64,000 nt of DNA from Halobacteriovoraceae bacterium (GTDB lineage: Bacteria; Bdellovibrionota; Bacteriovoracia; Bacteriovoracales; Bacteriovoracaceae): positions 480,001 to 544,000 of the forward strand of contig CAVRCF010000005.1 of the NCBI GenBank assembly GCA_963719505.1. The letters run 5' to 3'. Below the pieces are notes generated by a model that was not told the DNA's origin, did no database searches, and saw only the letters and a program-made list of their open reading frames with translations. Position numbers and translations under genes: made by a program. This document shows positions 6,564 through 24,582 of this stretch, one piece after another. Within the stretch, counting starts at the first letter, position 1. Every line of letters begins with the position of its first letter.

Positions 6564-6584
6564 GGTCTAATTACTGAGAAAGCC

Positions 6585-7447: not shown

Positions 7448-7452
7448 GATTA

Positions 7453-9123: not shown

Positions 9124-9277
9124 CTCTCCTAGAAAATATAATCAATAATTTATTTTAAGTTTTTTTTGGAAAAATTGAGTGTGGGGTAAAAAAGTTTAAC
9201 GCCAACAATCAAGAGCATTAGACTCCAGTAAATAAATACCACTAGATATTTGTCCAAAAATGTAAGATCATATACTT

Positions 9278-10066
9278 ATGAGTAATATTTTAAACAAAAG
9301 CAGTCACCCCGTTCATGTCAACCGTATTCCCATAAGGATTTGGAGACTACGGGATGAAATAGAGCTCGTCGTTCTCAAACGCATGCAAGACTGTGAAGCC
9401 CAAGGTCGGCAACTAGATATTGAAGACCTTCATAAGTTTTACGCTAAAAGTCCTGAAGCTACCCTCCAAGATGACGACGACGAAGATAACCTAGAATCAA
9501 ATGATCTCGATGAAGACTCCATAGAAATGGCCCGTGCATTAGATGAAGAGAATACAGAAGAAACAAAAGAAACTTCTGAGGAAGCTGAAGCGGCTAAACT
9601 AGCAGAGATGATGCTTTCCGATAAAAAAGAAGACTCAGATGAGCCTCAAACACAAAAGTCCCAGGTAAAGGAGCAGCTCATTGAAAGAACCGCTCCAGAG
9701 GCGGATAAAATCTCAACTGGCTTTGCATTTTTATCCGATATGGATATGTCAAAAATTCTTTGTTTTAGTAAAAAAGGATTCACACTAGGTCAGAACATCT
9801 GTATCGAGTTTCTTATTCCCAATAGTTTTATTATGACGGGAGAAGTTGTAGGATCAAACCATGTGGGAAGAAATTCAAAGATTATTTCTGAGATGAAACC
9901 TGAATTTAGAATTATGTCGGCCTTCTCATTCCATTTTGAAGGTGAAAGAGAAAGGCTTCGAAGTTTTCTTCAGTCCGTTGAGCCAGATATACCACCTCCA
10001 CCTAAAAAACTTAAAAAGTCAGCTGACGATGAGGAAGACGACGAATTTGAAGATCTTGGATTTTAA
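9278..10066 (+). CDS. Hypothetical protein with acidic linker and possible degenerate PilZ-like C-terminal beta domain
   Basis: Long ORF with D/E-rich tracts; C-terminal beta pattern ending RERLRSFL. Confidence 0.55.
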   Translation: MSNILNKSSHPVHVNRIPIRIWRLRDEIELVVLKRMQDCEAQGRQLDIEDLHKFYAKSPEATLQDDDDEDNLESNDLDEDSIEMARALDEENTEETKETSEEAEAAKLAEMMLSDKKEDSDEPQTQKSQVKEQLIERTAPEADKISTGFAFLSDMDMSKILCFSKKGFTLGQNICIEFLIPNSFIMTGEVVGSNHVGRNSKIISEMKPEFRIMSAFSFHFEGERERLRSFLQSVEPDIPPPPKKLKKSADDEEDDEFEDLGF

Positions 10067-11058
10067 TGAGTGACATAAGCTATAGTCGATCAAATAGAAA
10101 CTCAAGCTTTGTTCTTCTTGCGTTTTTATTAGCAATCGTTTTTCTCATAGCCATCTCTGAGGTCTTTAAAGGAACTGGTCGAGACCTTGGGGATGAAAGC
10201 CAATTGTTAAGTCCTATTAGGCCCGATATTTTGGCCAATATAAAAACAATCAAGCTCAAAAATAATCTTGGAACCTATACAGTCACAAAGGATACTAATG
10301 GCTGGCTTCTTAAAGAGCCAAGACTAATGCCTGCAAACTCAGAAGTTATTTCTGAGCTTTTGAAAGATCTCTCTACAACATCGGTAAAGTCCACAATCCC
10401 AAAGGATCCTATTAATCTGAGCAACTTTGCTCTTGAAAACCCTTCAGTTTCTGTCGACTTATTCACTGAGCTTGATGAGCAGTTAAAAATACAAATTGGT
10501 CTTATCAACCCTATTAACAATACAACTTATATTTCTGTTAATGACAACGAGAGTATTTACCAAGTTGATGTCTTTAAAACAAACTTTCAGTCATATAGAC
10601 TCTCCGACCTCATAGACTCCTCGGTATTTTCCCCCAAATTATCCGATATCAATGAGCTAAGAATCTACAGTCGAGACTATAGAGACCCAACCAGTGAACT
10701 TATAAGAGGAGAAGAAAACTGGAAAAGTAAAAAATACAAAACAATAACGAAAGAGAACGTAGATAAAAAAATTGAGCAGATACTTAATATAAATACCCAT
10801 ATGATCATCGATAAACAAAATGAAGAGCTTAAGACCATGCTCTCAAACTATCTTGAAAAACCTCTATACAGAATTGTTTTAACGATAGAGGGAAAAATTA
10901 TTGAATATAAAATCTCTACTCTTTTAAAAGCAATCCCTGAACTAAAGCTTGAAAATAGGCAGTATTTTTTAATGACAGCCTCTGATAGACAATACACTTA
11001 CGTTATCCCAAAAATCAATATGGACCAATTCTATATTCGCTACAGCGACTTAAAGTAA
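10066..11058 (+). CDS. DUF4340-like membrane-anchored protein
   Basis: N-terminal TM helix; W..KEP...AN...L, FALENP and IG..NP patterns. Confidence 0.7.
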   Translation: MSDISYSRSNRNSSFVLLAFLLAIVFLIAISEVFKGTGRDLGDESQLLSPIRPDILANIKTIKLKNNLGTYTVTKDTNGWLLKEPRLMPANSEVISELLKDLSTTSVKSTIPKDPINLSNFALENPSVSVDLFTELDEQLKIQIGLINPINNTTYISVNDNESIYQVDVFKTNFQSYRLSDLIDSSVFSPKLSDINELRIYSRDYRDPTSELIRGEENWKSKKYKTITKENVDKKIEQILNINTHMIIDKQNEELKTMLSNYLEKPLYRIVLTIEGKIIEYKISTLLKAIPELKLENRQYFLMTASDRQYTYVIPKINMDQFYIRYSDLK

Positions 11059-11061
11059 AAA

Positions 11062-11718
11062 CTAAATTTTTCGAAGAAGAGACACACCATCCACAAATGG
11101 TAAGAATATGGATTCAAACTTTTGAGATTGAGCAATGTATTGATGAAGAGCCCTAATATTAGCAGCCGTTTTTTTCTTTGCAACAACTTCGTCATCGAGA
11201 AAGCTTCCTCTCCAATAAGAGTTGTCGATTAAAACAATGCCGTTTTGATTTAATTTATCGTGAGACTTTTCTAAAAACTCCAAATAATCTGCCTTTACAC
11301 CATCAATTAAAATAAAATCAAAATCTTGCATTGATTCAAAAACTTCGAAAGCATCATTTTGATGGTACTCCAACTTCTGTTTCCAAGAGGGTTTCCACGG
11401 AAGATTGTGATGAATCTGCTCAAGATCATCCCTTTTTTCCGTCAAAATAACTTTCTCAATTTGATGATCACTCAAAGAATACCAAAAACAACTTTGGCCA
11501 TAGCCAGATCCAAATTCAAATATTCTTTTTGGTCTCAGCCAATGAAAAAGAAAACTAATAAAACTTCCTACATCATCATGAATTGCTGGGAAGTTAAGCT
11601 CTACCTCAAGCTGCTTTAAAAGTGTGTAGAGGGCTTTATTGTTGTCATCGAGGTGCAAGTAAGGATTTGACTGAGAAAATGTATTAAGTGACTCAAAACT
11701 AAAAGGAAAATCGCGCAT
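11062..11718 (-). CDS. SAM-dependent O-methyltransferase (YrrM/TrmR-like)
   Basis: EFGSGYGQS, FDFILIDGVK and GIVLIDN. Confidence 0.85.
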   Translation of the reverse strand: MRDFPFSFESLNTFSQSNPYLHLDDNNKALYTLLKQLEVELNFPAIHDDVGSFISFLFHWLRPKRIFEFGSGYGQSCFWYSLSDHQIEKVILTEKRDDLEQIHHNLPWKPSWKQKLEYHQNDAFEVFESMQDFDFILIDGVKADYLEFLEKSHDKLNQNGIVLIDNSYWRGSFLDDEVVAKKKTAANIRALHQYIAQSQKFESIFLPFVDGVSLLRKI

Positions 11719-11726
11719 ATTGCCTC

Positions 11727-11754
11727 AAAAAAAAAGCCACCTTAAAGGTGGCTT
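11727..11754 (-). terminator. Intrinsic terminator after rpmG
   Basis: AAGCCACC/GGTGGCTT stem followed by a T-tract on the minus strand. Confidence 0.85.
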
Positions 11755-11757
11755 ATA

Positions 11758-11934
11758 TTACTTAATTTCTTTGTGAACTGTATGCTTTCTCAAAGATGGA
11801 TTATACTTTTTAAGTTCTAATCTCTCTGGATGAGTTTTTTTATTTTTTGTCGTTGTATAACGCGAAGGAGATTTTCCAATCTTTCTTGCTTCTGTACATT
11901 CTAAAGTGATGATTACTCTTGGCCCCTTTGCCAT
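11758..11934 (-). CDS. rpmG: 50S ribosomal protein L33 (58 aa)
   Basis: Below the ORF-track cutoff. Manual translation [58 protein letters not shown], with GGAGG RBS. Confidence 0.97.
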
Positions 11935-12056
11935 ATTTCCTCCGGTATCTGAAAACTTTCATTTTGATTAATGTTTTATCTATAAAGATTGGTAACTTAC
12001 TATTTTCATGCTAAGTTTGACAAGAAAAATATACTAAAGATTGGAAATATATTGCG

Positions 12057-12338
12057 ATGAAAATAATAAACGAACAGAACTGGACATATACCCACTACAA
12101 AGCCACTGATTTTAAAGCCTTTGTTTCTATAGGTGGAGCTCCTGAGCTCGCTGACGATGATTTTATCTATATGGCCACAATTATCGATACCAATGAGAAC
12201 GAAATTCTTCAAAAAGATTTCAAAAGCATTGATGCAGCGTGTGATTTCTTAAATTCAAAATATTCTGACCTTTGGGACTTCGTCGATGCGCGAGTGGCCA
12301 AGAAAGAAGGTGGTTGCGACAGCTGTGCCGCTCACTAA
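12057..12338 (+). CDS. Small hypothetical protein with C-terminal GGCDSCAAH
   Basis: 93-aa ORF filling the intergenic space; terminal CxxCxxH. Confidence 0.7.
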   Translation: MKIINEQNWTYTHYKATDFKAFVSIGGAPELADDDFIYMATIIDTNENEILQKDFKSIDAACDFLNSKYSDLWDFVDARVAKKEGGCDSCAAH

Positions 12339-12344
12339 GGATCA

Positions 12345-13334
12345 CTAAGGAAGAAACTCCAAGTCAAAGAAGTTAGTAATTCGATCGATAAGCTCATTGA
12401 GCTTAGGCTCAATAAAGTCAAAATCTCTTTTTAAATCAAACAAACTAACCCCAGTAAGCTTTGTTTCAATTTCCCTAATCAAAAGAGGATGAACTAAGTC
12501 ATTACTTACTTCAACTTTTTCAATAATAGTCTTCCTTATCCCCATTTCAATATCATAATCTCCAAATTTTTCTCTAATGCTAAATTTTGGTGTTTCTTCA
12601 TAACGCCACTTTCTGGACTTAAGCTTATTGAGATACTCTCCATTATTAATGACAGAAAAAAGTGGATGTTCCTCATCAACAATTTCAGGGCGGTCCACTA
12701 GATTTGTCTTTGTCCTAAAAACGTCTACTAAAGAATTGATGAATATGTCGTTGGTTAAATGCTCTTGTTGTTGGGTAATATTGGCAACAACACTTCTTAT
12801 TGAGCTGATACTCTTACTCTCTAAATGACCTTTATCTGAGTGAATATAGTCATTTAGTTTTCCAATATCTGAACTGACCAGCATTGTCCCATGGTGGAAA
12901 GCGGTATCTTTTTTCTCTTTTGAGGCACTCCCCGAAATTTTTCTATTTTGAGGCTCTGTAAGCCTTATGTCTCCTCTTTGAGTAAAAGTGGCATCGACAC
13001 CCAACTTACCTAATGCATCGACCACTAAGGCGTGATTCCAGCTCTTTGAATAGAAGTTTTTGTCACTCACAAAGGAAAAGTTCACGTTGCCCTGGTCGTG
13101 ATAAACACAACCCCCACCAGATTGCCTCCTCACCAATAAGACATTGTCTCGACACATTTTTTGCAAATGACACTCAATCCATGGGTTTTGAAATCTCCCA
13201 AAGACGACACATGGCTTATTCACGTAAAGAAGCAAAATAACCTTATCTTTTGCCAATTTTGTGAGCAAAAAGTCCTCGAGAGCCAAGTTAAAATAGGGAT
13301 CTGAAGATTTAGATATATATATAAGTGAATTCAA
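12345..13334 (-). CDS. lplA: Lipoate-protein ligase A
   Basis: DPYFNLALE, GRFQNPW, RRQSGGGCVYHD, KISGSA and HHGTML. Confidence 0.93.
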   Translation of the reverse strand: MNSLIYISKSSDPYFNLALEDFLLTKLAKDKVILLLYVNKPCVVFGRFQNPWIECHLQKMCRDNVLLVRRQSGGGCVYHDQGNVNFSFVSDKNFYSKSWNHALVVDALGKLGVDATFTQRGDIRLTEPQNRKISGSASKEKKDTAFHHGTMLVSSDIGKLNDYIHSDKGHLESKSISSIRSVVANITQQQEHLTNDIFINSLVDVFRTKTNLVDRPEIVDEEHPLFSVINNGEYLNKLKSRKWRYEETPKFSIREKFGDYDIEMGIRKTIIEKVEVSNDLVHPLLIREIETKLTGVSLFDLKRDFDFIEPKLNELIDRITNFFDLEFLP

Positions 13335-13409
13335 TTGGACCCCAGTTTAAACTATTTCTCTCATAGGAGGATATGTTATATAATAACAGCATACTTAAAT
13401 GGAGTAAAA

Positions 13410-14624
13410 ATGAAAAAGCTCAAATATCTATCGACTATATATTCTGACGAAGCGACTTCCAAAGATGTAGAAGAACTCATATCAGCAAAAGAGAATTACT
13501 GGAAGGGTTGGAGCTGTACTGCAGGTATTAATAATCTTTATATAGACTACGACGGAAACGTGTTCGTTTGTAATAACTCCAGCTCCAAGCTCGATCGCTT
13601 TAATTACGAGGGCTGGGAGAAGAGAATCGTCGAGCTCAAAGAGAAGGGAATTGACCTTCTCACTGAAGAAGCCCATAAATCAGGACTCTATAAAAAACAC
13701 CAAAGAGCATTTGAGAGATCTGGTAGAGGCTTTGGAAACGAATTAGATTTCTACGAGCCCGAGTCATTTGAGCAGAATTGGGGATTTTTGGGAAGCATCT
13801 ATCAGAATTTTACTATCAATAAAAAAATAGTTAAATGTCCCTACGAGCAGTGTGGATGTGGAGCCGATATTCCAATCACAAAAGCGAGTGATCCAAAGTA
13901 TCTCAAAGCCTTTATCCTCGGCGGAATTTCAGAGGTCGAAAAGCAAGTAAACAAAGACGATATAAAAGACGGATCTCTCCAGCTTGTGACAAAAAGAGGT
14001 GGTATCCTTCCCACTATTCTTTGGGATCTAGGTAGAAGATGCAATTATGATTGCTCTTACTGTTGGCCCGCGGTCCACAATGCCAAAGAAGAGCATAAAG
14101 ATATAGAACTGTTAAAGAAAACATGTAAAAAAATAATGGATGAGCTAGCACCAGGAAAAGTAAAACTTTTCTGCTTCTCAGGCGGAGAACCTACCCTACA
14201 CCCCGATATCACAGAGCTTTTGGAGTTTATTCACATCAATGGACACAGGACATTGATGACGACAAATGGCTCAGCAAAACAAGACAAATGGAAGCAAATT
14301 GCTCCCCTTATCTCCGATATCCAAATGAGTGCACATTTTGAGTCACTCAATGATCAACTTTTTTTGGAAAACGTAGATGTATCTTTAAAAGAGCTTATAA
14401 AAAGTAAAGGGCGAAAGAGTTTAGATGTAAAACTAATGACTCCTCCAGGTGAAATTGAAAGAAGCCTTAAAATGAAAAGCAATATTGAGAAGCTTGAATC
14501 GTTAAAAGAGATTCAACAAGCAAGTTACGAGGGCTTCATCGGTGTCACACTCGTTCCTCTTCGTGGAATCGATAACTCAGAACAGCTCCTAGATTATACA
14601 GAAGAGGAACTCAAAGCTTTTTAA
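13410..14624 (+). CDS. Radical SAM protein with N-terminal twitch-like auxiliary Fe-S domain
   Basis: GGAG RBS before ATG 13410. N-terminal WKGWSCTAG...IDYDGNVFVC...CPYEQCGCGAD; C-terminal CNYDCSYC, SGGEPT and TTNG. Confidence 0.88.
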   Translation: MKKLKYLSTIYSDEATSKDVEELISAKENYWKGWSCTAGINNLYIDYDGNVFVCNNSSSKLDRFNYEGWEKRIVELKEKGIDLLTEEAHKSGLYKKHQRAFERSGRGFGNELDFYEPESFEQNWGFLGSIYQNFTINKKIVKCPYEQCGCGADIPITKASDPKYLKAFILGGISEVEKQVNKDDIKDGSLQLVTKRGGILPTILWDLGRRCNYDCSYCWPAVHNAKEEHKDIELLKKTCKKIMDELAPGKVKLFCFSGGEPTLHPDITELLEFIHINGHRTLMTTNGSAKQDKWKQIAPLISDIQMSAHFESLNDQLFLENVDVSLKELIKSKGRKSLDVKLMTPPGEIERSLKMKSNIEKLESLKEIQQASYEGFIGVTLVPLRGIDNSEQLLDYTEEELKAF

Positions 14625-16443
14625 TTTTTGTGGTCATAATATCTTGACCACAAGAGCATTGTTCTTTATTACAAAGAATTGGTTTTTTTGGGAATCTTAT
14701 TTTGAAGTCATTTATATTACCAAAAACTCCGCCTACTCCACACCAACCTCTCAAAAGCTTACCGTAGAAATCAACACAAATCGTCTCAAGGCCTATATTA
14801 CAATCCCATCCACTCCAGTGATTGAAATTATTTGATATCAATTCAGCTGAATTTGTTCTTAGTTTTTCTCCACCTTTGAAGTTTAAAATAAGCTCACCTC
14901 TTGAGTGATATCGATCACCTTTGAAGGGTTCAACATCAACTGAACGGTTAAGAGATTGAGAGTTTAAAACTTTCATTTGATCACTTGTATAATCGAACAT
15001 CTTCCCATCCATCCCTTCAAGAAGAGGCTGGAGGGCAATGGTCACTGGTGATTCATTGATAATAGATTGGGCCAACTCATGACAAAGATCAAAGTTTTCA
15101 GGCTTCATCATTATATTAACGTGAACTGAAGTTTTTCTACTCGTATATTTGATCACTTTTTGAAAGTGCTCTGGATCCCCTTGTTCTGAGTGAAAGCTGA
15201 ACATGATATGATCAAGAAATTCTAAATTCTCTTCCCAAAATTCAATTTTTCGAGCACCATTTGAAATGATGGCTACATAATGCCCAAGACTTTTTATATG
15301 CCTAATAAGCTCCTTAAACCCTTTATAATAGGTGACTTCGCCACCAGTGAGTTCAAAATGAACTTTTTTATCAGGATACTCGGCCACAACTCGTTCCACA
15401 AATTTTTTGGCAACCTCAAGCTCAACTCCTCTGCTGGTTCCGTTGTGAAGTTCGTCCGGGCAATAAGTACATTTATAATTACATATATTTGTTAGACACC
15501 AATTAACAATAAGTTGGTCTTTATGTTTTTCGTGAACATGAACAAGTGAGCTTGCATCAGACTTTTTATTAACAGCTTGATCCAAATTGATAAACTGAGA
15601 AGGTGTAAATTTTTTCTCTTCGCTGTCAGCTTTACTAGTGACAACTGGAGTCTGATGATTTTTTTCAACTCGTTGTCTATCATTTATCTTTGCATGAACA
15701 ATGAAGTCTTCAGGTATGACATTACTAATTTGCGTTCGTCTACTTAGAGAGGAGGAACGAACAAAAAGGTAACTCAAAAGACTGGTAAAAACATGGAAAA
15801 AAGAGGCCGTGTTGTAGCGATAAAAACTTTTTCTCACAAGAGGCACTCTGTCTAGAAACCTAATATTGAATCTTCGATAGAAACTAAAAAGAATAAGGTG
15901 AAAAAAGATAAACTGATTATCGGGAAGATAAGAGAGATCCTGATAGTCATTTGAAAAGTCCTGGGTTCGAAGAAGATAACAAGAATCACCAGAGACATCT
16001 TTTATAAACTTCATGCCTACAACAGATGAGAAGAAGGTTGATAAAGAGAAGAAAGCCCTCCCAATTGATAAATCTTTGGGTATTCTGGATGATGATATAA
16101 GAGAGTAATTTACTTTATCAGTGGAGCCTATAAAATTTAAAAAGTTTTCATAGTCATCATCACAACCCTCATTAAAGATGGCCGTGTATTCAACTTTCCA
16201 TTCTTTCGCAATAGTTAAGCCAATTTTACACCTATGAGAGGCATCTATATAATCCGTCAGCATTAAAGAATACTCAAAGCCACTCATTTCTCTTTCTATG
16301 TTAGACTTTTCATCTTGAAACTCTCTTGGAATCAAAATGAGAAGATGCTTGGGGAAACTATGTCCTCTTAATCTATCAACGAGACTGTAGAAATAGCGTG
16401 TATCTTTAAAAAATGGGATTACACACAGTGTCTTAAAACTCAT
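14611..16443 (-). CDS. Degenerate GT2-like domain fused to radical SAM and a C-terminal twitch-like domain
   Basis: N-terminus resembles DPM-like GT2 (VIP..., SSR, KDVSG). CNYKCTYC, TGGEVT and ISNG. C-terminal WSGWDCNIG...GWC...CNKEQCSCGQD. Confidence 0.8.
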   Translation of the reverse strand: MSFKTLCVIPFFKDTRYFYSLVDRLRGHSFPKHLLILIPREFQDEKSNIEREMSGFEYSLMLTDYIDASHRCKIGLTIAKEWKVEYTAIFNEGCDDDYENFLNFIGSTDKVNYSLISSSRIPKDLSIGRAFFSLSTFFSSVVGMKFIKDVSGDSCYLLRTQDFSNDYQDLSYLPDNQFIFFHLILFSFYRRFNIRFLDRVPLVRKSFYRYNTASFFHVFTSLLSYLFVRSSSLSRRTQISNVIPEDFIVHAKINDRQRVEKNHQTPVVTSKADSEEKKFTPSQFINLDQAVNKKSDASSLVHVHEKHKDQLIVNWCLTNICNYKCTYCPDELHNGTSRGVELEVAKKFVERVVAEYPDKKVHFELTGGEVTYYKGFKELIRHIKSLGHYVAIISNGARKIEFWEENLEFLDHIMFSFHSEQGDPEHFQKVIKYTSRKTSVHVNIMMKPENFDLCHELAQSIINESPVTIALQPLLEGMDGKMFDYTSDQMKVLNSQSLNRSVDVEPFKGDRYHSRGELILNFKGGEKLRTNSAELISNNFNHWSGWDCNIGLETICVDFYGKLLRGWCGVGGVFGNINDFKIRFPKKPILCNKEQCSCGQDIMTTKIKKL

Positions 16444-16500
16444 ATTATCTTCCTTGTTTGAAGTATTATATCAAAGAATTACTTCGAGAGTACAACTAAT

Positions 16501-17865
16501 TTACTTAGGTGGAGCGTAAAGGAGCAATTTATCTGAGTATTTTATGCCTTTCTCGGTGGTCCAGTCTAGAAAATATCCGATCCCAAACTTTCTAAAAAAA
16601 CTCGAGGATCCCTTCTCGTCTAAAACAATATATTTTATTTCACCTGGGCTATTCCAAAGGATAAAAAGAAGAGTAACAGCGTGACTAGTCGATAAATAGC
16701 CTAAATTTCTGTACCCTATCGCCGGAAATTTTTCAAACTCTATCAAACCTTCGCGATCTTTAACCGCATAGAGATAATCTTTTTTCTTTTTTAAAAAGCT
16801 AAACTCCATAAACAAAAGAGAAAAGAAAAGTGAGTAAGCGATAAATTTAAAGCTCCTTAAAAAGATCTTTTCTCGCTCTGGAAAAAGAACCAGGACAAAA
16901 ATGACTATAATGATAAAACCTGCACATATAATTGTCGCAAATGTTCGACCAGCGTAGGGCATCCACAAATCAAACCAGTTGAGCTCCATGAAGACAAAGT
17001 AATTTAACAGGGCACTAAAAACGAAACCAACAAGTTTCATTTTTGGTTTCCACAAACAAAAGAGACTTGTGACTAAAGCCATAGAAAAATTAACAGCCAA
17101 TAACCGAATCAAAACATAGTGCTTATAGCCTTGGAAAAAATTATTGTAATTCCCTGTGTATATTTCTCTATAGAGATTGATTGCATAGATTTGAAAAATA
17201 ATAGAGCTGACCAAAATAAAATAAAGGCTCCAAGCATATTTTTTTTCAAGTTTTTGGGAAAAGACAAACGCAATAAGAAAAGGGCTCACTAAAACAGGAA
17301 GTGGATAGCAACCATTGGCCAAAACAAAAAATAAAATAAACATCCAAAATCTTTTGCCATTTATTTTACATAAAAGTTGAGTCGCAGCGATCCATAAAAA
17401 GCTTATTGCAGGAATAAGCTCACTTACGTGACAAAGAAAACAACTAACAAAGCATAAAAACAAACCAATGGCATGATAAATGGCCAGATGGACCTTCTCC
17501 TTTGGCAAAGTAAAATAGTTAAAAAGGAGGCAAATAAGAGGTATAGAGACGTGAGTAATCTCAAAGATCCGAGAAAGAGTGAGGAGATCATTACCTATAT
17601 AGTTTATGTAAAAGACACTAGGATAATGCAAAACAGCAAAGCCAATATGCCTAAGATCGGGGTGAAAGATCACTTTTTTTCGAATGGAAATCGTGAAAAT
17701 ATACTCGGAAGCATCGTAAAGAAGGGATGACCCAAACATCACAGCTAAAGCACTTAGTATGCATAAGCCGCAAAAAAGAATCCAAAAGTCTTTTCTGATA
17801 TTTTCGATAGTTAACCTCAATATAAAATTCTTTTTAATTTTATTGAATTTAAAGTTATAATGCAA
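16501..17865 (-). CDS. Polytopic membrane protein, GT-C-like
   Basis: About 11-12 hydrophobic segments, an acidic YD just after the first TM and a soluble C-terminal tail; lies in a glycosylation gene context. Confidence 0.5.
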   Translation of the reverse strand: MHYNFKFNKIKKNFILRLTIENIRKDFWILFCGLCILSALAVMFGSSLLYDASEYIFTISIRKKVIFHPDLRHIGFAVLHYPSVFYINYIGNDLLTLSRIFEITHVSIPLICLLFNYFTLPKEKVHLAIYHAIGLFLCFVSCFLCHVSELIPAISFLWIAATQLLCKINGKRFWMFILFFVLANGCYPLPVLVSPFLIAFVFSQKLEKKYAWSLYFILVSSIIFQIYAINLYREIYTGNYNNFFQGYKHYVLIRLLAVNFSMALVTSLFCLWKPKMKLVGFVFSALLNYFVFMELNWFDLWMPYAGRTFATIICAGFIIIVIFVLVLFPEREKIFLRSFKFIAYSLFFSLLFMEFSFLKKKKDYLYAVKDREGLIEFEKFPAIGYRNLGYLSTSHAVTLLFILWNSPGEIKYIVLDEKGSSSFFRKFGIGYFLDWTTEKGIKYSDKLLLYAPPK

Positions 17866-17890
17866 TCTCTACCTAAAAAAGGAATCATTA

Positions 17891-19762
17891 ATGTGCGGCA
17901 TATTTGGATTTGTTAACTTAAATCAGCAAAATCTAGAAGGTGCTGAGTTAGAACATGATATCAATAAATTTCTCAAACTCTCAGAGATAAGAGGAAAAGA
18001 CTCGACAGGCCTTGTTATTGAAAAAGAAAACAATCTCGACCTCATAAAGCTTCCTCTAACAGCTTCCAAATTTATGAATACTGATAAATTTAAAGATTTC
18101 AAAAAAAAGAATCTATCGGGAAATATTCAAACACAAAATTTTAGTTATATGGGGCACTGTCGACTGATGACCTCGGGTGCCAGTTTTAATGATCACAATA
18201 ATCAACCGATCGTATCGGGAGATATTATAGGTGTTCACAATGGAATTATTACCAGCGCACCAAAGGACTTCAATGATTCACAGTATATTTTAAAGACAAT
18301 TGAGATGTTTTATAAACAAGAAAATTCTAGCGAGAGTCTGTGCTCTTATCTGACTCAAAAGACCACGGGATCATTTACTTGTGCTTTTTATCATCAACGC
18401 CTGAGACAGCTTATTATAATCACAAATGTAGGCTCTTTATATTATATTAAAAATGAGCATTATTTCCTCTATGCTTCCGAAAGAGAAATACTCCAAAAAT
18501 TTCTAAAAAGTTCTGCTCTTGAAAACATTGACAATAATATTATCACTCAACTAAAACCTCATGAGCAATTAGCAATAGATTTAGAATCAAGAAAAGTTGT
18601 CTCAAGTGAAGAGAAAATGATTTATAGAGACGACAATTTTTATAACGTTAACTACTCGATACGATCTCCAGACAGTCTTAAAAGGTGCTCTCGCTGTATC
18701 CTTCCCTCCACCTACCCTTTTATCCATTTTGATACAAAAGGTGTTTGTAACTTCTGTCTCCATTACCAAAAACAAAAGCTTCACGGCGAGGAAGCTCTTT
18801 TGAGATACCTCGATAAATTTCGCTCCAAAGATGGATCACCAGACACTTTGGTTGGACTTAGTGGAGGAAGAGATAGTTGTTATGGAATTCATCTTCTAAA
18901 GACAAAGTACGGTATGAATCCTGTAGCTTATACATTTGACTGGGGCTTAACAACGGAGATCTCAAGAAAAAATCAAGCTCTCATGTGCGGGGAACTTGGG
19001 ATAGAGCATATAATCAGAACACCAGATATCGTTAAAAAGCGTCGATTTGTGAGAAAAAATGTCATGGCATGGTGTAAGAAGCCTCATCTTGGAATGGTCC
19101 CTCTCTTTCAAGCTGGTGATAAAGAATTTTATCACTATGGACGCAAGCTTAGAGAAGAACTCAATATAGACCTGACTGTCCTATGCTCTGGCTACCAACT
19201 TGAACAAAGAGAGTTTATGATAGGCTTTGCGGGAGTCGATCAACCGCCGGTGAGAAACAATCACGACTTTTACTATCACCCCATGAGCACAAAGCTTCAC
19301 TTGGCATATCGTTACTGCCTAGAGTATTTAAAGAATCCTGCTTATATCAACGAGAGTTTTTACGAAAGTGTGCGGGCTTATTTTATGAGTTTTTTTGCAA
19401 AGTCAGATTTTCTCTACCTCTTTCATTATCTCCCTTGGAATGAATCCGAAATCGATTCCGTCCTGAAGAATAAATACGGATGGATTACCGACGATGGCTA
19501 TGGAAAAAACCAGTGGCGTATGGGAGATGGCCAGACAGCATTTAATAATTATATCTACTATAAAGTTGCCGGGTTCTCAGAATATGATACCTTTCGCTCC
19601 AATCAAATTCGCGAAGGGTTGATCTCACGAGACGAGGCGATAAAACTGACAAAGCTTGATAACATACCTAAAACTGAAAGCATGAATGAATTTTTTAAAC
19701 TTATCGGACTCTCAGAAGAAGAAGTGATGAGAAGGATTGAATCTATCCCCACCCTTTATTGA
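17891..19762 (+). CDS. Class II (Ntn) glutaminase fused to PP-loop N-acetyl-sugar amidotransferase (WbuX/PseA-like)
   Basis: N-terminal MCGIFG, RGKDSTG, GHCR and HNG; C-terminal RCSRCILP...CNFC, GLSGGRDS and IREGLISRDEA. Confidence 0.85.
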   Translation: MCGIFGFVNLNQQNLEGAELEHDINKFLKLSEIRGKDSTGLVIEKENNLDLIKLPLTASKFMNTDKFKDFKKKNLSGNIQTQNFSYMGHCRLMTSGASFNDHNNQPIVSGDIIGVHNGIITSAPKDFNDSQYILKTIEMFYKQENSSESLCSYLTQKTTGSFTCAFYHQRLRQLIIITNVGSLYYIKNEHYFLYASEREILQKFLKSSALENIDNNIITQLKPHEQLAIDLESRKVVSSEEKMIYRDDNFYNVNYSIRSPDSLKRCSRCILPSTYPFIHFDTKGVCNFCLHYQKQKLHGEEALLRYLDKFRSKDGSPDTLVGLSGGRDSCYGIHLLKTKYGMNPVAYTFDWGLTTEISRKNQALMCGELGIEHIIRTPDIVKKRRFVRKNVMAWCKKPHLGMVPLFQAGDKEFYHYGRKLREELNIDLTVLCSGYQLEQREFMIGFAGVDQPPVRNNHDFYYHPMSTKLHLAYRYCLEYLKNPAYINESFYESVRAYFMSFFAKSDFLYLFHYLPWNESEIDSVLKNKYGWITDDGYGKNQWRMGDGQTAFNNYIYYKVAGFSEYDTFRSNQIREGLISRDEAIKLTKLDNIPKTESMNEFFKLIGLSEEEVMRRIESIPTLY

Positions 19763-20496
19763 GAATAGACACCAGTCAATTTGTAATAATAAATGCGCAA
19801 AATGTCTTTAAGCATATAGATGCCGTCTTTTAGGACTTTCACGCTTTTTCCATCTTGGGATCTCAAAGTAACGCATGTCTTTTTAATATTCATTTTTAAA
19901 AGTGTAGCAATCAAAATAATTTCTGTATCGATAGCGAATCTATTGACTCGGGAGAGGCCAAAAAGCTTTTTGCCAATGGACGATTTAAAGGACTTAAAAC
20001 CGACTTGGGTATCAATTCTTTTTCCTAAAAGAGGATAAGTTGCATAGGTATAGAGCAAACTAAAAAAAGCTCTCTTTAACCCAACCTTTGATCCATAACG
20101 ACTCCGATTAAGACTTCTATCACCTAAAACTAAATCCGCCCTATTCTCTGCCAAAGCACTGAGGGACTCTAAAACGAAGTCAAAATTATAGGGAATATCT
20201 GAATCGGTGAAAGTGATAACATCACACTTGGCACAATCGAAGCCTCTTCTCAAAGCCTCTCCCTTTCCTGTGTTTTCCGAAATATAGATATAGTTAAACC
20301 CATAGGCTTGAGCTAATTTTTTCGTCATTTTTCTTTCAATAAGTTCACTTCCATCGTCGACAATAATCACCTCAAAAGAAATTTCTTTTTCATTAAGATG
20401 AGAAAGCAAATAATCAATATTAAGTTCCAGAGCTTTAGAGGAATTAAAGCAAGGGATCACAAAGCTTACTGATAGAGGTTTTACTAGACTAGTCAT
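19756..20496 (-). CDS. GT2 glycosyltransferase, polyprenyl/dolichyl-phosphate glycosyltransferase-like
   Basis: IPCFN, IVDDGS, NTGKGEA, DSD, GDR, DTQVGFK and FAIDTEI; start overlaps the upstream stop codon. Confidence 0.88.
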   Translation of the reverse strand: MTSLVKPLSVSFVIPCFNSSKALELNIDYLLSHLNEKEISFEVIIVDDGSELIERKMTKKLAQAYGFNYIYISENTGKGEALRRGFDCAKCDVITFTDSDIPYNFDFVLESLSALAENRADLVLGDRSLNRSRYGSKVGLKRAFFSLLYTYATYPLLGKRIDTQVGFKSFKSSIGKKLFGLSRVNRFAIDTEIILIATLLKMNIKKTCVTLRSQDGKSVKVLKDGIYMLKDILRIYYYKLTGVYSQ

Positions 20497-21862
20497 GAGC
20501 CAATGTTTTCGCCTTTTCATAAAATTCACTATATTCTGGAAAGTACTTTAAGAAGTTCATCTGTCGTCTATGTTCGATTTTTTCAGTGAAGGCATAAAAG
20601 TCTTTCATCGTCTGATCTGATACATCATTGTTTGAAATACCTTTTTTAATGCTGTACATGAAAGGCAAGTAGGCACTCCATCTTTGCGCTGAATTTTCAC
20701 CAAAAGCGGTACATCTAAAGATTCCGGCCTCTGGGTTGGCAAGCTTGGTCTCAACTAATTCGATACATTTATCAACATAGTGCTCAAACTCTGGTCCCAG
20801 TGTGTAGGGAGAAAGATAGTCCGGGGCAACAACAATATTTTCTTTGTAATCGATTAAAACGTTATATTTATTTTGTAACTCCCAAGCGTACTCTAGAAGA
20901 TTTGAGAGACTTGAGATACACAAATTATTAATAGCAAGCTGAAGACCAAATCTAAAATTTGGAAAACGCCTCTCAAGAGTGTTGGTGATATTCTCAACCA
21001 TAATATGCCAATTGGCACCGGCTCTGATATATTCTGTTTTTTTATCAAAAGATTCCCCTGAGACTTCAAGGTGAACGATATAATTTTTTGATAGTTCTTC
21101 AACAGTATCTAAGAACTCATTAAACTTTTTGACTGGGATTCCAAAGTTAGAAATAATTTGAATAATTGGTTTTTCATGGATAGATAAGTCCTTGGGAGTT
21201 CTTCTGTTTATCTCTTCCAAGTAGTGCAGAAAGTTTTTATTAACAAGAGGCTCTCCCCCAATAAAAATAATTCTCTTTAATGTTTTTTTTATTTTATCAA
21301 ACCACAGCCAAAAGTACTCATCAAAGGCCTCTGGTTTTGTGGTGGTGTTTCGATGCATTGACTCTTTTGATCGATCGCCAAATTTAACACTCTCACGCTC
21401 CCATTCAGTACTAAAGTCATCTGAGCAGTAAACGCATTTATAATTACACTGGTTACTTAGGGCAATCTCTAAAAGCTCAGGTTGGTCGGCCCTTAGATAT
21501 TTTTCTTCTTTTTTGTATTTGATTTCGTCGAAGGATTTATTCTCACCAGTTTGAGTATTCATCCACTGAGTAAAAGGTTCAGCTCCAGTTCTAGAGCTCA
21601 TTAGCCCTTTATCCTCTAAAATGATGCAGCTAAAACAATCTTTGTGTCTTAGACCATCAAGTTTCTCCCTTCTACGTTCTAATAAATAGGGATGATTGAT
21701 AAAGGCATCTGTGCCATAAAGTTTAAAGTCTTCGTCGGTTAATTGATAATTGATTGTCTTATCACAAGTTCTAATCTGGCCTCGATCGACCATGATAACA
21801 GGATAGCTCCATCTCCACTTACAAATAGTTTTCTCGGGTTCAAACTGACCTTCAATTCTCAT
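20489..21862 (-). CDS. N-terminal twitch-domain radical SAM protein
   Basis: N-terminal CKWRW...RTC...CFSC; SNQCNYKCVYC, IGGEPL, EYIRAGANW; GAGGAG RBS. Confidence 0.88.
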   Translation of the reverse strand: MRIEGQFEPEKTICKWRWSYPVIMVDRGQIRTCDKTINYQLTDEDFKLYGTDAFINHPYLLERRREKLDGLRHKDCFSCIILEDKGLMSSRTGAEPFTQWMNTQTGENKSFDEIKYKKEEKYLRADQPELLEIALSNQCNYKCVYCSDDFSTEWERESVKFGDRSKESMHRNTTTKPEAFDEYFWLWFDKIKKTLKRIIFIGGEPLVNKNFLHYLEEINRRTPKDLSIHEKPIIQIISNFGIPVKKFNEFLDTVEELSKNYIVHLEVSGESFDKKTEYIRAGANWHIMVENITNTLERRFPNFRFGLQLAINNLCISSLSNLLEYAWELQNKYNVLIDYKENIVVAPDYLSPYTLGPEFEHYVDKCIELVETKLANPEAGIFRCTAFGENSAQRWSAYLPFMYSIKKGISNNDVSDQTMKDFYAFTEKIEHRRQMNFLKYFPEYSEFYEKAKTLAHD

Positions 21863-21953
21863 CTAAAACTCCTCTGGTGAGCCTAAATGTTAAGTTATGC
21901 AATGATAGATGGAAAGATTTTTATCAAAGGATTATTAATAAATCTCTAATGAT

Positions 21954-22058
21954 TTATTTTTTTACTTCGACCTTTACTTTCTTTGGCTGCTTGGACTTTG
22001 CAAATCCATAAGCGATGATAGATAAAACTGCGGCTGTGGCTAAAAGTGTCATTGTCAT
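21954..22058 (-). CDS. Small 34-aa single-TM protein
   Basis: Not in the ORF track: MTMTLLATAAVLSIIAYGFAKSKQPKKVKVEVKK. Strong AGGAGG RBS and an upstream GCCGATAA box. Confidence 0.65.
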   Translation of the reverse strand: MTMTLLATAAVLSIIAYGFAKSKQPKKVKVEVKK

Positions 22059-22076
22059 GATGCCCTCCTGTAAACC

Positions 22077-22084
22077 TTATCGGC
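22077..22084 (-). promoter_or_regulatory. Possible sigma28 -10 element
   Basis: Perfect GCCGATAA on the minus strand upstream of the small ORF; no canonical TAAA at 15-nt spacing. Confidence 0.45.
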
Positions 22085-22211
22085 TACTTACTTCATATTA
22101 TAACAACAAAATTCAATAAAATAGCCTAAAATAATTTCTTTACCTGACATTTATCTTTGACGAGTATATAATTAACCTACTTTCAATCATTTAGAACTGT
22201 TCGGAGCAAAT

Positions 22212-23633
22212 ATGCTGGAAAAGCTAACGACGGCCCAAAAGGCTTTAAAAATTAACCTAGATCCAAATATCTATGGCACATTCGCCGAAATCGGTGCTGG
22301 TCAAGAGGTTGCCGGAAATTTCTTTAAAGCTGGTGCGGCCAGTGGAACAGTGGCCAAGTCAATTTCAGCTTACGATATGATCTTCTCAGACAGTATCTAT
22401 GGTAAAGAACCTTCAGGGCGATACGTCTGTCAATCTCGGCTCAATAAAATGATAAAGTATGAATACGACCTCGTTCTTGAGAGACTTTTAACAAGTAGAA
22501 ACTCTGGTAAATATTTTGCCTTCGCCAACACTGTATCAGCTCGAAACTTTCATGGCACTAATGAAGCTCATGGATGGATGGGCTTACGATTTCAGCACGA
22601 AGAAAGTAGTGATGCCTCCGACATCGTCATCCACATTAGAATGCATGACAATTCGAATTTACTGCAGCAAAAGGCCATAGGGATTCTTGGCGTTAACATG
22701 ATTTACGCCAGCTACTTCTCTAGCGGCAATCTAAAGAACTTCGTACAAACTCTTATGGATAACTTGGGACGAGAAAGAATTGAAATCGATATGATCTCGG
22801 TAGCTGGTCCGGCTTTTGCACATTTTGATAATAGACTTGTGAATCTAAAATTGCTCGAGTTGGGCCTCACAGATGCAGTGCTTTTTGATAAAGCGGGAAA
22901 GATTACCTTACCCAGCGAGGAACTCTATAAAAAGAATATTCTTATCGCTCGTGGAAGTTATCGCCCACCTACATACGTAAACTCAGATATTATGAAAACG
23001 GGGATCGAGAACTTCTCAAAAGATGTAAGTTCCAAAAAAGATGAAATTTTAAATCTCGCTGAAATAACGATCACAAATTTAAATTCAGCTGGAGAATTTG
23101 CAAATGAAGACTTTCTCGCAAGAGTCGATCTTTTAACCAGTATGAACCAACCCGTTATTATTACCAACTTTGCCCAGTATTTTAAACTATCTAATTATCT
23201 CCAGCGATTCAAACCAAAGAAGATTGCCATTGTTCTTGGTGCCTATAACTTCATGCAAATTTTCGATACCGAGTACAGCGAAAGAACCGAAAGTGTCCTG
23301 GATTCAGTTTCGCAACTGTTAAAGCCAAACGTGTGCATTTACCTGTACCCTTTTAAAGAAGAAAACCAAAGTGATGACCTCATCAGTCTGGCGACAATGG
23401 AAGTGTCTAAAGACAATCAATACCTTTTAGAGCATATCAAACACTCAAAGCAGGTCAAAGATCTTCAAGGAGTCGATAATTCGCTCCTTCATATTTATTC
23501 CAGAAAAGTTCTAACAATGATCACTTCATCTGAGCCCGGTTGGGAGAAATATGTTCCTGATGAAATTTCAAAAACAATAAATGAAAAATGCCTCTTTGGA
23601 CACCCATGTGATTTTCCAGAAAAAGAAGACTAA
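22212..23633 (+). CDS. Nucleotidyltransferase-like conserved protein (NMN adenylyltransferase-like family)
   Basis: KALKINL..IYGTFAEIGAGQEVA, GAASGTVAKSISAYD and RGSYRPPT (HIGH-like) are typical of this conserved family; function uncertain. Confidence 0.6.
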   Translation: MLEKLTTAQKALKINLDPNIYGTFAEIGAGQEVAGNFFKAGAASGTVAKSISAYDMIFSDSIYGKEPSGRYVCQSRLNKMIKYEYDLVLERLLTSRNSGKYFAFANTVSARNFHGTNEAHGWMGLRFQHEESSDASDIVIHIRMHDNSNLLQQKAIGILGVNMIYASYFSSGNLKNFVQTLMDNLGRERIEIDMISVAGPAFAHFDNRLVNLKLLELGLTDAVLFDKAGKITLPSEELYKKNILIARGSYRPPTYVNSDIMKTGIENFSKDVSSKKDEILNLAEITITNLNSAGEFANEDFLARVDLLTSMNQPVIITNFAQYFKLSNYLQRFKPKKIAIVLGAYNFMQIFDTEYSERTESVLDSVSQLLKPNVCIYLYPFKEENQSDDLISLATMEVSKDNQYLLEHIKHSKQVKDLQGVDNSLLHIYSRKVLTMITSSEPGWEKYVPDEISKTINEKCLFGHPCDFPEKED

Positions 23634-24582
23634 TTATCTTACATTCGTTATAGGTCTTCTTTTATCTGGAGCCTCACTGACATATATTTTAATGCAAACT
23701 CCTTTTGAAGAGTTTAAAGAACACCTAACTTCTATTGATCCAATATTTTTCTCCTTATCTATCCTCGTCAATATTCTTGGATATTTTATTCACGCAACGA
23801 GATGGAGAATACTCTTTGAGGGGAAATATCCTCTTTTTGCTTTCTATCACTCCATTACGATAGGAAACCTGGCCAATACTATTCTACCGAGTAAAAGTGG
23901 TGAACTCCTAAGGCCACTGGCGCTTAAAACTCAAATTGGTGTCTCATACGCAAAAGCTCTCAGTAATTGCTTCTTAGAGCGTCTTTTTGATATTGTTTTT
24001 GGTCTAACAATTCTTTTCTTTTCTATAATCTATCTCGATTTACTTGAAAAGTTTGAGATCTTCAGAAGTGGAATACTGATAACAGTGGCGTTAATAGTAC
24101 TTCTATTTTTCATTATCATTTTTGCTTTAAAAATTGATTTAAAAAGATTTATCCATTCAGCTCCCATTAATGGCTTTTTCCTGAACTTAAAAGAGCAATT
24201 TCAGCATCTGGTAAAAGCTCGTGTAACGTTGAAAATGATAGTGATGACAACTATTTTTTGGAGTGCTGGGGTTTTAATTTTTTACTTTCTCCTACTATCA
24301 TCACCTCTTCCTGAAGCTCTTCAGACTCTGCCTTTTGCTGCTTTTTTAAGTTCAGCGATGGGAATAACGCTTTCACTACCAAGTGCGCCTGCGAATATTG
24401 GCGTGTTCAATCTAACAATTATTATACTAATGAAAATTTATTTGGAGCAAAATGCCATTAAAGTGGATGATACTTTGGAGGCGCAAATTGTTGCCTCATC
24501 TATCGTTATCCATTTGGGATCACTGATACCTGATTTCGTCATGGGAAGTTTGTCTATGATTAAAATGAGTCGATTAAATTAA
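23581..24582 (+). CDS. UPF0104 / lysylphosphatidylglycerol synthase TM-domain membrane protein (flippase-like)
   Basis: RW, NTILPSKSGELLR, ERLFD and PSAPANIG motifs; multiple TM segments; true start may be slightly downstream. Confidence 0.85.
   Translation: MKNASLDTHVIFQKKKTNYLTFVIGLLLSGASLTYILMQTPFEEFKEHLTSIDPIFFSLSILVNILGYFIHATRWRILFEGKYPLFAFYHSITIGNLANTILPSKSGELLRPLALKTQIGVSYAKALSNCFLERLFDIVFGLTILFFSIIYLDLLEKFEIFRSGILITVALIVLLFFIIIFALKIDLKRFIHSAPINGFFLNLKEQFQHLVKARVTLKMIVMTTIFWSAGVLIFYFLLLSSPLPEALQTLPFAAFLSSAMGITLSLPSAPANIGVFNLTIIILMKIYLEQNAIKVDDTLEAQIVASSIVIHLGSLIPDFVMGSLSMIKMSRLN

Follow-up and report, generated by a model that had tools for sequence, protein, structure and literature searches.

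The window analyzed here is a 64,000-nucleotide stretch of the genome of a Halobacteriovoraceae bacterium (GCA_963719505.1, contig CAVRCF010000005.1, positions 480,001 to 544,000 of the forward strand), and all coordinates refer to this window. At 13410 to 21862, the window contains an island of six tightly packed genes. A first-pass annotation had described these genes as encoding three twitch-type radical S-adenosylmethionine (SAM) enzymes, an amidotransferase, a family 2 glycosyltransferase (GT2), and a polytopic membrane protein, which together might tailor a surface glycan. The open reading frames (ORFs), the Pfam and NCBIfam scores, and the sequence motifs agreed with this account of the six genes and their packing. 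The island is bounded by lplA on one side and by a conserved gene for a 473-amino-acid (aa) protein on the other. It is organized as four transcription units of alternating orientation; convergent gene ends overlap or nearly abut, and the internal gaps are 58 bp or less. The genes of the island and its immediate neighbors are as follows.

12345 to 13334: lplA (LplA-B_cat, 176.1 bits)
13410 to 14624, plus strand: rSAM1, 404 aa; radical SAM core (CNYDCSYC) at the C-terminus, preceded by a Cys-rich twitch-like module
14611 to 16443, minus strand: rSAM2, 610 aa; predicted GT2-like N-terminal domain, linker, radical SAM core, and C-terminal twitch-like module
16501 to 17865, minus strand: GT-C-like membrane protein, 454 aa; candidate periplasmic glycosyltransferase
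17891 to 19762, plus strand: fused amidotransferase, 623 aa; Ntn (class II) glutaminase at the N-terminus, then a PP-loop domain of the NASAT/WbuX type that includes a Zn ribbon
19756 to 20529, minus strand: GT2 (referred to as GT2_257), 257 aa; candidate polyprenyl-phosphate sugar synthase
20489 to 21862, minus strand: rSAM3, 457 aa; N-terminal-twitch radical SAM protein and member of NF033640
22212 to 23633, plus strand: conserved 473-aa gene with no assigned family; anchor of a variable site and probably outside the pathway
23581 to 24582, plus strand: UPF0104/LPG_synthase_TM flippase-like protein (PF03706, 112.9 bits; TIGR00374, 50.2 bits); candidate flippase, uncertain as a part of the system

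The rSAM1 reading frame is open from a TTG codon at 13335, which would yield a protein of 429 aa. The start at 13410 (Met26 of the 429-aa ORF) is the likely one because homologs align only from residue 30 onward.

All three radical SAM proteins scored above the PF04055 cut-off of 29.5 bits (60.2 for rSAM1, 47.9 for rSAM2, and 38.7 for rSAM3), which placed them in the radical SAM superfamily. Each contained one CX3CX2C motif, which was CNYKCTYC at residue 321 in rSAM2 and CNYKCVYC at residue 139 in rSAM3. In the case of rSAM3, we found a full-length match to NF033640 (N_Twi_rSAM; 207.8 bits versus a cut-off of 170, model positions 2 to 398 of 398), a computationally defined family with no assigned function. 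In contrast, rSAM1 and rSAM2 fell below the cut-off of this family: rSAM1 scored 43.4 bits over positions 116 to 231 only, and NF033640 was not among the best 25 families for rSAM2. Judging from their sequences, rSAM1 and rSAM2 are not members of NF033640 and are a separate paralog pair. Thus, the radical SAM core and its motif were found in all three proteins that had been called twitch type, and the N_Twi assignment was confined to rSAM3.

The cores of rSAM1 and rSAM2 were paralogous (E of 4e-18). In addition, the N-terminal Cys-rich module of rSAM1 (residues 14 to 51) matched the C-terminal module of rSAM2 (residues 526 to 563; E of 6e-6), and the order of the domains is therefore permuted between the two proteins. 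An alignment of the rSAM2 family (A1) contained nine full-length members with 36 to 54% identity, and five Cys residues were invariant in the C-terminal module of this family. The Pfam SPASM domain (PF13186) was not reported for any of the three radical SAM proteins of the window; it matched the N-termini of paralogs in three other loci (L036, L112, and L116). Among solved structures, SpeY (7wzv) matched rSAM1 with an E of 0.012.

Of 301 Bdellovibrionota genomes, 79 had NF033640 matches above the cut-off, and these were often several copies in tandem; none of 14 control genomes had such a match. The window's genome had two members of the family; the second one was located elsewhere, at G000:C1:404825-405991, and scored 304.7 bits. 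A close-pattern scan of viral sequences with rSAM3 found nothing, and patterns from the rSAM2 family (A1) picked out five viral loci with 24 to 30% identity. We also noted a 46,940-bp contig (L051/L044) with an N_Twi-like gene and two genes resembling the rSAM2 module, which was listed both as an IMG/VR viral contig and in a Rickettsiales metagenome-assembled genome.

The first-pass annotation had described rSAM2 as one of the radical SAM proteins with auxiliary Cys clusters, and a GT2-like domain at its N-terminus was missed. When residues 2 to about 227 of rSAM2 (roughly 15760 to 16440) were compared with a mixed GT2 alignment using hhalign, the probability was 98.4% (E of 9.9e-15, 214 columns). 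The three controls, which were a membrane family, the radical SAM core, and a reversed GT2 alignment, yielded 0.1 to 0.4%. A comparison with the five GT2_257 orthologs alone yielded 38.7% (E of 3.2e-4) in the same register. Pfam detected no significant GT2 match in this domain, with a match in one of nine family members at an E of 0.22. The nucleotide-binding DDGS motif of GT2 enzymes was lost from the domain; an (E/D)GxxD motif, R120, and D149 were conserved, and D149 and R120 aligned with the GT2-invariant residues D173 and R138. Based on hhalign, the single method that detected it, rSAM2 is predicted to carry an N-terminal GT2-like domain.

The membrane protein has about eight or more hydrophobic segments. 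A full HMMER scan of 1.84 billion representative proteins identified 10 relatives at an E of 1e-3 or less, and a word-based homolog search recovered only the protein itself. We aligned the membrane protein with its relatives and with positional analogs from loci L032 and L033 (alignment A2). Three residues were nearly invariant in A2: D51, which is located just after the first transmembrane segment and was shared by the L032 and L033 analogs, R72, and P109. D51 is part of a (Y/F/W)-D-(G/A)-(S/T/A) motif and would be positioned in the first extracytoplasmic loop, according to the topology inferred from the K/R-rich N-terminus. Pairwise BLASTP comparisons among the three positional GT-C-like proteins were not significant, and the shared motifs were visible only in the multiple alignment.

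An AlphaFold (AF2) model of the membrane protein had a pLDDT of 80 and a pTM of 0.84. When this model was compared with solved structures using VIA-align, ranks 1 to 14 were all occupied by GT-C enzymes (Z of 10.9 to 6.8, 225 to 314 residues aligned), and the first unrelated rows appeared at a Z of 6.5. The GT-C enzymes were Pmt4 (Z of 10.9), AftA (10.7), Pmt1/2, STT3, PglB, AglB, ArnT, AftB, ALG12/9/6/3, GPI-MT-I, and AftD (6.8). The first-pass annotation had named a non-GT-C model as grounds for refutation, and this check came out in its favor. We accept a GT-C-like fold for the modeled protein because the list of matches was uniform and because of the Asp residue in the predicted first loop. 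Its sequence relatives suggest a tiny orphan family, which is a candidate for a new GT-C family.

The amidotransferase matched GATase_6 with 30.5 bits (cut-off of 27) and began with MCGIFG, in which the nucleophilic Cys of class II (Ntn) glutaminases comes immediately after Met1. According to passages of PMC10607449, the signatures of the NASAT family are a PP-loop of the form SGGXDS and a tetracysteine motif of the form CXXCXn[GN]XCXXC, and the NASAT enzymes described there are known from sugars of the lipopolysaccharide (LPS) O-chain. The window protein carries both of these NASAT/WbuX signatures, SGGRDS at residue 324 and CSRC...GVCNFC at residue 266. It also matched 8wex, the only solved NASAT (E of 9.6e-16, residues 277 to 351). 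The WbuX family model TIGR03573 scored 142.7 bits in two stretches, which was below the cut-off of 203.2. Hence, the proposal of a WbuX-type enzyme held at the level of the motifs and the structural match but not at that of the family cut-off. In comparison with NASAT/WbuX/WbpG enzymes (8WEX; PMC10607449), the window protein shares the PP-loop and the Zn-binding motif, and a homolog in genome G038 is located in a sugar cluster. That cluster resembles one for nonulosonic acids and includes genes for a UDP-GlcNAc 2-epimerase, a cytidylyltransferase, a B12 radical SAM enzyme, and a GT2.

WbuX-type enzymes obtain ammonia from separate HisH/HisF-like partners, WbuY and WbuZ. The window enzyme has a fused Ntn glutaminase in place of these partners, which would render it self-sufficient for ammonia. 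The fused form was widespread: 4086 of 8000 scored candidates matched at an E of 1e-10 or less. The 119 homologs that were listed had 43 to 57% identity, all but three were full length, and their source names were hypothetical protein, AsnB, or GlmS. Within the phylum, the distribution was patchy, with matches at an E of 1e-60 or less in 18 of 401 genomes and none found in three congeners.

GT2_257 matched PF00535 with 76.4 bits (cut-off of 23.3) and contained DDGS at residue 58 and DSD at residue 109. D58, D109, D111, and D173 were invariant in five homologs. Ten solved structures matched by sequence, including DPMS (5mlz, 6.7e-7), GalT1 (5hea, 7.6e-7), GtrB (5ekp, 5.7e-6), and ArnC (9hwj, 5e-4). 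The NCBIfam matches that reached residue 246, near the C-terminus, were dolichyl-phosphate hexosyltransferases (AglJ and DPhHxTase_Halo), and the ArnC model of NCBIfam scored 31.8 bits versus a cut-off of 529.

We then compared the insertion site in related genomes. The 473-aa gene was conserved in all five relatives searched (61 to 75% identity) and had no Pfam, NCBIfam, or PDB match. Islands were located directly 5' of this gene in the window's genome (G000), G013, and G002. In G001, a genome of the same genus, the gene order was pepN, the 473-aa gene, h192, and lplA, with no island. The G013 island contained radical SAM, GT-C, and GT2 genes. A different island was found in G002, which also belongs to the same genus (L073, G002:C18 11902-19972). 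It encoded a PMT_2-like membrane protein of 510 aa and a PRK-type kinase fusion of 679 aa, together with a HAD phosphatase, a class II aldolase, a double nucleotidyltransferase, and a GT2; judging from these genes, it looks like a second, nonradical sugar-modification cassette. The site is a hot spot, and alternative GT-C/GT2 cassettes are what would be expected of a locus for surface-glycan variation. The UPF0104 gene adjoined the 473-aa gene both in the window and in G002, with 32% identity between the two copies versus 75% for the neighboring 473-aa gene.

Housekeeping genes flank the island (the cox operon, the M1 peptidase gene pepN, lplA, and a transketolase gene), and we rejected the idea that the island is part of a large O-antigen cluster on the basis of these flanks. 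The island was not set apart from its surroundings by GC content. Promoter-like sites (40 versus 35.4±7.2 in shuffles) and terminator-like sites (12 versus 7.8±2.8) were not in excess of shuffled sequences. A look-up of sequencing runs listed no run with the island and no RNA holder. A 34-aa ORF (21954 to 22058, minus strand) is located in the 350-bp gap just upstream of rSAM3 and on the same strand. Its N-terminal half is hydrophobic, its tail is rich in Lys, and it could be a small membrane protein or a chance ORF.

The first-pass annotation had named co-occurrence of homologs in other genomes as a check on a shared pathway, and such co-occurrence was observed (L032, L033, L034, G349, and G253). 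Full-length rSAM2 had a GT-C-like neighbor of the A2 family at three of three visible loci, namely the window, L032 (genome G464), and L033 (genome G013). L032, a 12.8-kb contig, carried genes for rSAM2, an rSAM1 ortholog (52% identity), the GT-C-like protein, a DegT aminotransferase, and a methyltransferase. L033 carried genes for rSAM2, the GT-C-like protein, two other radical SAM proteins, and a GT2_257 homolog (23% identity) and had no amidotransferase gene. On a 5.2-kb contig of a same-genus genome (L034), the rSAM2 gene (48% identity) adjoined an 892-aa ORF in which rSAM3 (67.5%) was fused in frame to rSAM1 (49%); an assembly error is possible for a fusion on this contig. The best homologs of rSAM2 (54% identity), the amidotransferase (57%), and the membrane protein (31%) had a 792,149-bp ENA contig as the longest contig in each case.

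All three radical SAM subfamilies were found at distinct positions in 4 of 18 genome loci (L034, L036, L037, and L040) and also in L079. Loci of this kind often contained genes for large GT2s, as in the L036 and L037 arrays, carbamoyltransferases, a nucleoside diphosphate (NDP)-sugar 4,6-dehydratase, or B12 radical SAM enzymes. Carbamoyltransferase genes were also observed in the relatives' loci L035 and L111. L079 is a metagenome contig with a single-strand operon (843 to 20838) that encodes an NDP-sugar 4,6-dehydratase-like protein, ten radical SAM proteins (one of the B12 type), and several unassigned proteins; members resembling rSAM1 (37%) and the rSAM2 module (38%) are among them. In three Bacteriovoracaceae loci (L036 5001-7632, L037 44-2382, and L072 14212-18056), radical SAM arrays were directly adjoined by LolCDE/MacB-like ABC genes, a LolA_like gene, and, after these, genes for unassigned proteins of about 331 to 469 aa. 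The product of such arrays may be lipid anchored and exported.

The amidotransferase loci of 11 other genomes were also compared, in each case within the fetched locus. GT2_257 homologs (30 to 37% identity over 232 to 250 residues) were present in 3 of the 11 (G253, G135, and G349), with a weak fourth, and twitch-type radical SAM genes were present in two (G253 and G349). The whole set of components was found in G349, where the amidotransferase, radical SAM, and GT2 genes were directly followed by a gene for a polytopic protein with a weak PMT_2 match (E of 3.2e-4). A hidden Markov model of A2 did not detect the polytopic proteins beside the amidotransferase and GT2 in G135, G349, and G253, which belong to other families. 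The polytopic proteins of L113 and L116 were related to each other (E of 3e-8). In L113 (G135:C8, 5286-9540), the amidotransferase-GT2 pair was followed on the same strand by genes for a PHP-domain protein, an OlsB-like GNAT (Acetyltransf_5), a PlsC-type acyltransferase, and an arginase-family enzyme. This ornithine-lipid-like set could link the amidotransferase family to membrane-lipid head groups.

We propose that the island is a self-contained Gtr/Arn/Flm-type envelope glycosylation cassette, similar to the three-component systems, with added radical SAM and amidino tailoring, and we assign this reading a probability of about 0.5. Under this proposal, a sugar of the N-acetylhexosamine type would be activated first, and the fused glutaminase/NASAT enzyme would then turn its N-acetyl group into an acetamidino group, using ATP and glutamine-derived ammonia. 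The three radical SAM enzymes would edit unactivated carbons of the sugar by dehydrogenation, epimerization, or deoxygenation, reactions with precedents among the twitch enzymes that modify sugars and cyclitols. The soluble DPMS/GtrB-like GT2 would load the sugar onto polyprenyl phosphate; alternatively, the GT2-like domain of rSAM2 might load the carrier, or it might dock the radical SAM domain onto a lipid-linked sugar at the membrane. L032 had no GT2 in its 12.8 kb besides the rSAM2 GT2-like domain. The lipid-linked sugar would be flipped, possibly by the nearby UPF0104 protein, and the GT-C-like protein would transfer it to an acceptor in the periplasm, which might be lipid A, LPS, or another envelope molecule. 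Lipid A would be a reasonable candidate because the lipid A of Bdellovibrio bacteriovorus has mannose in place of phosphate, according to a passage of PMC2233673 that cites this finding.

The Gtr/Arn-like logic with a tailored sugar, which the first-pass annotation had put forward, is the best reading because homologs co-occur, the membrane protein has a predicted GT-C fold, the GT2 has DPMS, GtrB, and ArnC among its best solved relatives by sequence (with GalT1 scoring equally), and the amidotransferase has the NASAT motifs. It is partly supported. The analysis demonstrated the gene set with its catalytic motifs, a GT-C-like fold, the GT2-like fusion, co-occurrence and fusion of homologs in other genomes, and the behavior of the site as a hot spot. 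A single pathway for all six genes, the identity of the substrate, the order of the steps, the chemistry of each radical SAM enzyme, UPF0104 as the flippase, the acceptor (LPS or protein), and a role in phage evasion or prey interaction are the parts that we infer.

An extended form of this proposal makes more specific predictions. The radical SAM enzymes would act on a polyprenyl-phosphate-linked sugar at the inner membrane face, and rSAM2 would be recruited by its decayed, DPMS-like GT2 domain. A complex of rSAM1 and rSAM3 is proposed because the two are fused in a congener. The product, an acetamidino and radically edited sugar, would be attached to lipid A or LPS in predatory Bacteriovoracaceae by the founder of a new GT-C family, and the hypervariable locus would serve to diversify the surface of the predator. 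This would be the first three-component system with radical SAM tailoring; taken with all of its particulars, the extended form is rather doubtful.

A number of observations weigh against the proposed cassette. The cores of the radical SAM proteins were weakly similar to viperin and GDGT-MAS and to no sugar enzyme specifically, and the activity of the rSAM2 GT2-like domain is doubtful because DDGS is lost. As for the call of a DPM-type GT2, DPMS, GtrB, and ArnC were among the best solved relatives of GT2_257, but GalT1, which is not a polyprenyl-phosphate enzyme, matched as well as DPMS, and no transmembrane segment was predicted in GT2_257. The membrane protein had no Pfam family even at an E of 1 or less and no NCBIfam match, which places it outside the described GT-C families (PMT_2, ArnT, STT3, and the like). 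VIA-align Z values below about 13 may be nonspecific for helical bundles, and those of the GT-C matches were at most 10.9. Foldseek had no match at an E of 1e-3 or less (the best E was 0.034), with OST, PglB, and AftA at probabilities of 0.8 to 0.96.

Other points of this kind concern the neighborhood and the relatives. The UPF0104 gene, 1.7 kb away, is the sole flippase candidate and is not of the GtrA, SMR, or MATE type; it was not found at the site in G013, where an island is present, or in G001, where none is. The 12.8-kb L032 contig had no amidotransferase gene and no separate GT2 gene, and G135 had amidotransferase, GT2, and polytopic protein genes and no radical SAM gene. OlsB/OlsA-like acyltransferase genes abut the G135 amidotransferase-GT2 pair, which hints at a membrane-lipid target. 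The gene set is thus recurrent but modular, and one pathway in the window is not proven because the modules occur apart (L032 and G135).

This modularity fits a competing explanation, in which two independent modules share the hot spot. rSAM1, rSAM2, and perhaps rSAM3 would work with the GT-C-like protein, the rSAM2 GT2-like domain would load the carrier, and the amidotransferase and GT2_257 would produce an acetamidino sugar for another glycan, so that the two modules would have no molecule in common as their target. In agreement with this idea, L032 had the radical SAM and GT-C-like genes apart from an amidotransferase, G135 had the amidotransferase and GT2 apart from radical SAM genes, and G013 had radical SAM, GT-C, and GT2 genes apart from an amidotransferase; the alternating orientation of the four transcription units in the window also fits. 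However, GT-C-like and intact GT2 genes occur just once each in the window, and both are interleaved with the radical SAM genes at gaps of 58 bp or less. Furthermore, G349 and G253 each have a single cluster in which the amidotransferase gene is accompanied by genes for a GT2, a polytopic protein, and several radical SAM enzymes, and for rSAM2, the amidotransferase, and the membrane protein alike, the longest contig of the best homolog is 792,149 bp. We consider two separate modules unlikely.

A target in the membrane itself is quite unlikely. Here, the GT2 would glycosylate a lipid, the radical SAM enzymes and the amidotransferase would remodel the glycolipid or aminolipid head group, the UPF0104 protein would flip it, and the polytopic protein would pass it on or export it. 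Hopanoid head groups are remodeled in a comparable way by HpnI and HpnJ. The nearby UPF0104/LPG_synthase_TM gene, which weakly matched the glucosaminyl-PG flippase model NF053789, is in line with this possibility. So are the OlsB/OlsA-like acyltransferases directly downstream of the G135 amidotransferase-GT2 pair, the LolCDE/LolA-like genes that flank the radical SAM/GT2 arrays in L036, L037, and L072, and the weak matches of the radical SAM cores to the lipid enzyme GDGT-MAS. However, the structural neighbors of the membrane protein are glycosyltransferases that use lipid-linked sugars, not transporters, and the relatives have DegT, NDP-sugar dehydratase, and nonulosonic-acid-type genes, which suggest chemistry on nucleotide sugars. 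The LPS O-chain sugars from which NASAT is known, in the passages of PMC10607449 noted above, also argue against a lipid head group.

Many SPASM and twitch radical SAM enzymes mature ribosomally synthesized and posttranslationally modified peptides (RiPPs), and MftF is a GT2 in a RiPP pathway. A mycofactocin-like system, with radical SAM maturases, an AsnB-like amidotransferase acting on a peptide, and glycosylation by the GT2, is very unlikely at this locus. The NCBIfam matches to several maturases that would favor it were weak, and all were far below the cut-offs. Within the window, there was no room for a precursor gene, since no gap between the island genes exceeds 58 bp and the ORFs in the 350-bp gap at 21862 to 22212 encode 20 to 45 aa with no repeated or Cys/Gly-rich core. 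A Pfam scan found no peptidase, leader-binding, or export gene, and the relatives are located among glycosyltransferase and sugar enzyme genes. The amidotransferase has the NASAT tetracysteine and PP-loop motifs and not an Asn_synthase domain. We rejected a RiPP system for lack of a precursor gene in the window.

An antiviral or nucleotide-modifying function like that of viperin is extremely unlikely and was rejected because the matches were only partial: prokaryotic viperin was the best NCBIfam/PADLOC match of rSAM1 and rSAM2 (pVip, 63.4 and 56.5 bits) and the best PDB match of the rSAM2 profile (E of 3.2e-5), but the NF038283 scores of the three radical SAM proteins (59.3, 54.6, and 31.2 bits) were far below the NCBIfam cut-off of 180 and covered about the first 70 to 118 positions, that is, only the cluster-binding part (roughly the first 100 of 257 to 281 model positions). 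Moreover, a twitch-like module and a GT2-like domain are additional features of the window proteins, and no gene for a kinase or another partner in nucleotide metabolism is located nearby.

The systems closest to the proposed glycosylation cassette are GtrA/GtrB/Gtr*, ArnC/ArnE-F/ArnT, FlmF/FlmK, CsbB/GtcA/YfhO, and the pentofuranose systems of Kelly et al. 2024 (PMC11127046). Like these systems, the island has a gene for a predicted GT2 synthase, an adjoining gene for an enzyme with a predicted GT-C fold, and a nearby flippase candidate, and it is compact, separate from a main O-antigen cluster, and variable in content among strains. Passages of PMC11127046 describe tailoring enzymes (ORF13 or DprE1/E2 homologs) that come with the three components in some systems that use a lipid-linked sugar, and name GtrA/SMR and MATE as flippase families, and FlmF and FlmK are described as lipid A glycosylation genes in part of PMC2233673. 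Unlike the known systems, the island encodes three radical SAM enzymes and a glutamine-dependent amidotransferase, its GT-C-like protein lies outside the described glycosyltransferase families, and its flippase candidate is MprF-like (UPF0104). GT2_257 also differs from GtrB and ArnC in that it has no C-terminal transmembrane helices.

Several twitch radical SAM enzymes act on sugars and cyclitols, including BtrN, SpeY, HygY, and AprD4. The window proteins resemble these enzymes in that a radical SAM core is combined with a single putative auxiliary-cluster Cys module and in their sugar-enzyme context, and the DegT-family aminotransferase of L032 recalls the oxidation-transamination logic of BtrN and BtrS. 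They differ in that we found no specific sequence kinship, the auxiliary module is N-terminal in rSAM1 and rSAM3, and rSAM2 is fused to a GT2-like domain.

In the literature covered, which excluded most subscription journals, we found no characterized radical SAM trio, GT2-like/radical SAM fusion, orphan GT-C family of this kind, or fused NASAT. The first-pass annotation knew of no characterized pathway with this gene set, in agreement with this result, but the set is not unique, since related radical SAM/glycosyltransferase cassettes recur widely in the phylum. The logic of GT2, flippase, and GT-C enzyme is already known, and the GT-C partner, the amidotransferase, and the hot-spot context distinguish this cassette from the related ones. 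To our knowledge, all known versions of three-component systems use ordinary sugars or redox epimerases.

Elsewhere in the window, a second accessory patch contains genes for an IS66-family transposase, an ankyrin-repeat protein, a C-5 cytosine DNA methylase adjoining another GT2, and an HNH endonuclease (36024 to 37673, 37815 to 38960, 40265 to 42305, and 47169 to 47672). A gene at 1418 to 2428 (plus strand) encodes a spore-photoproduct-lyase-like protein (PF20903, E of 2e-25), which belongs to a radical SAM DNA-repair family and is apparently unrelated to the island.

In many bacteria, periplasmic three-component glycosylation changes surface antigens, confers resistance to antimicrobial peptides, and allows escape from phages. 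If radical SAM enzymes and a self-sufficient amidotransferase do tailor a carrier-linked sugar at this locus, they would bring new chemistry to surface glycans and offer a first way into the function of the large family of N_Twi radical SAM proteins. The system would also define a new GT-C family and a widespread, uncharacterized group of fused NASAT enzymes, and the compact size of the six-gene island makes the hypothesis directly testable by heterologous expression.

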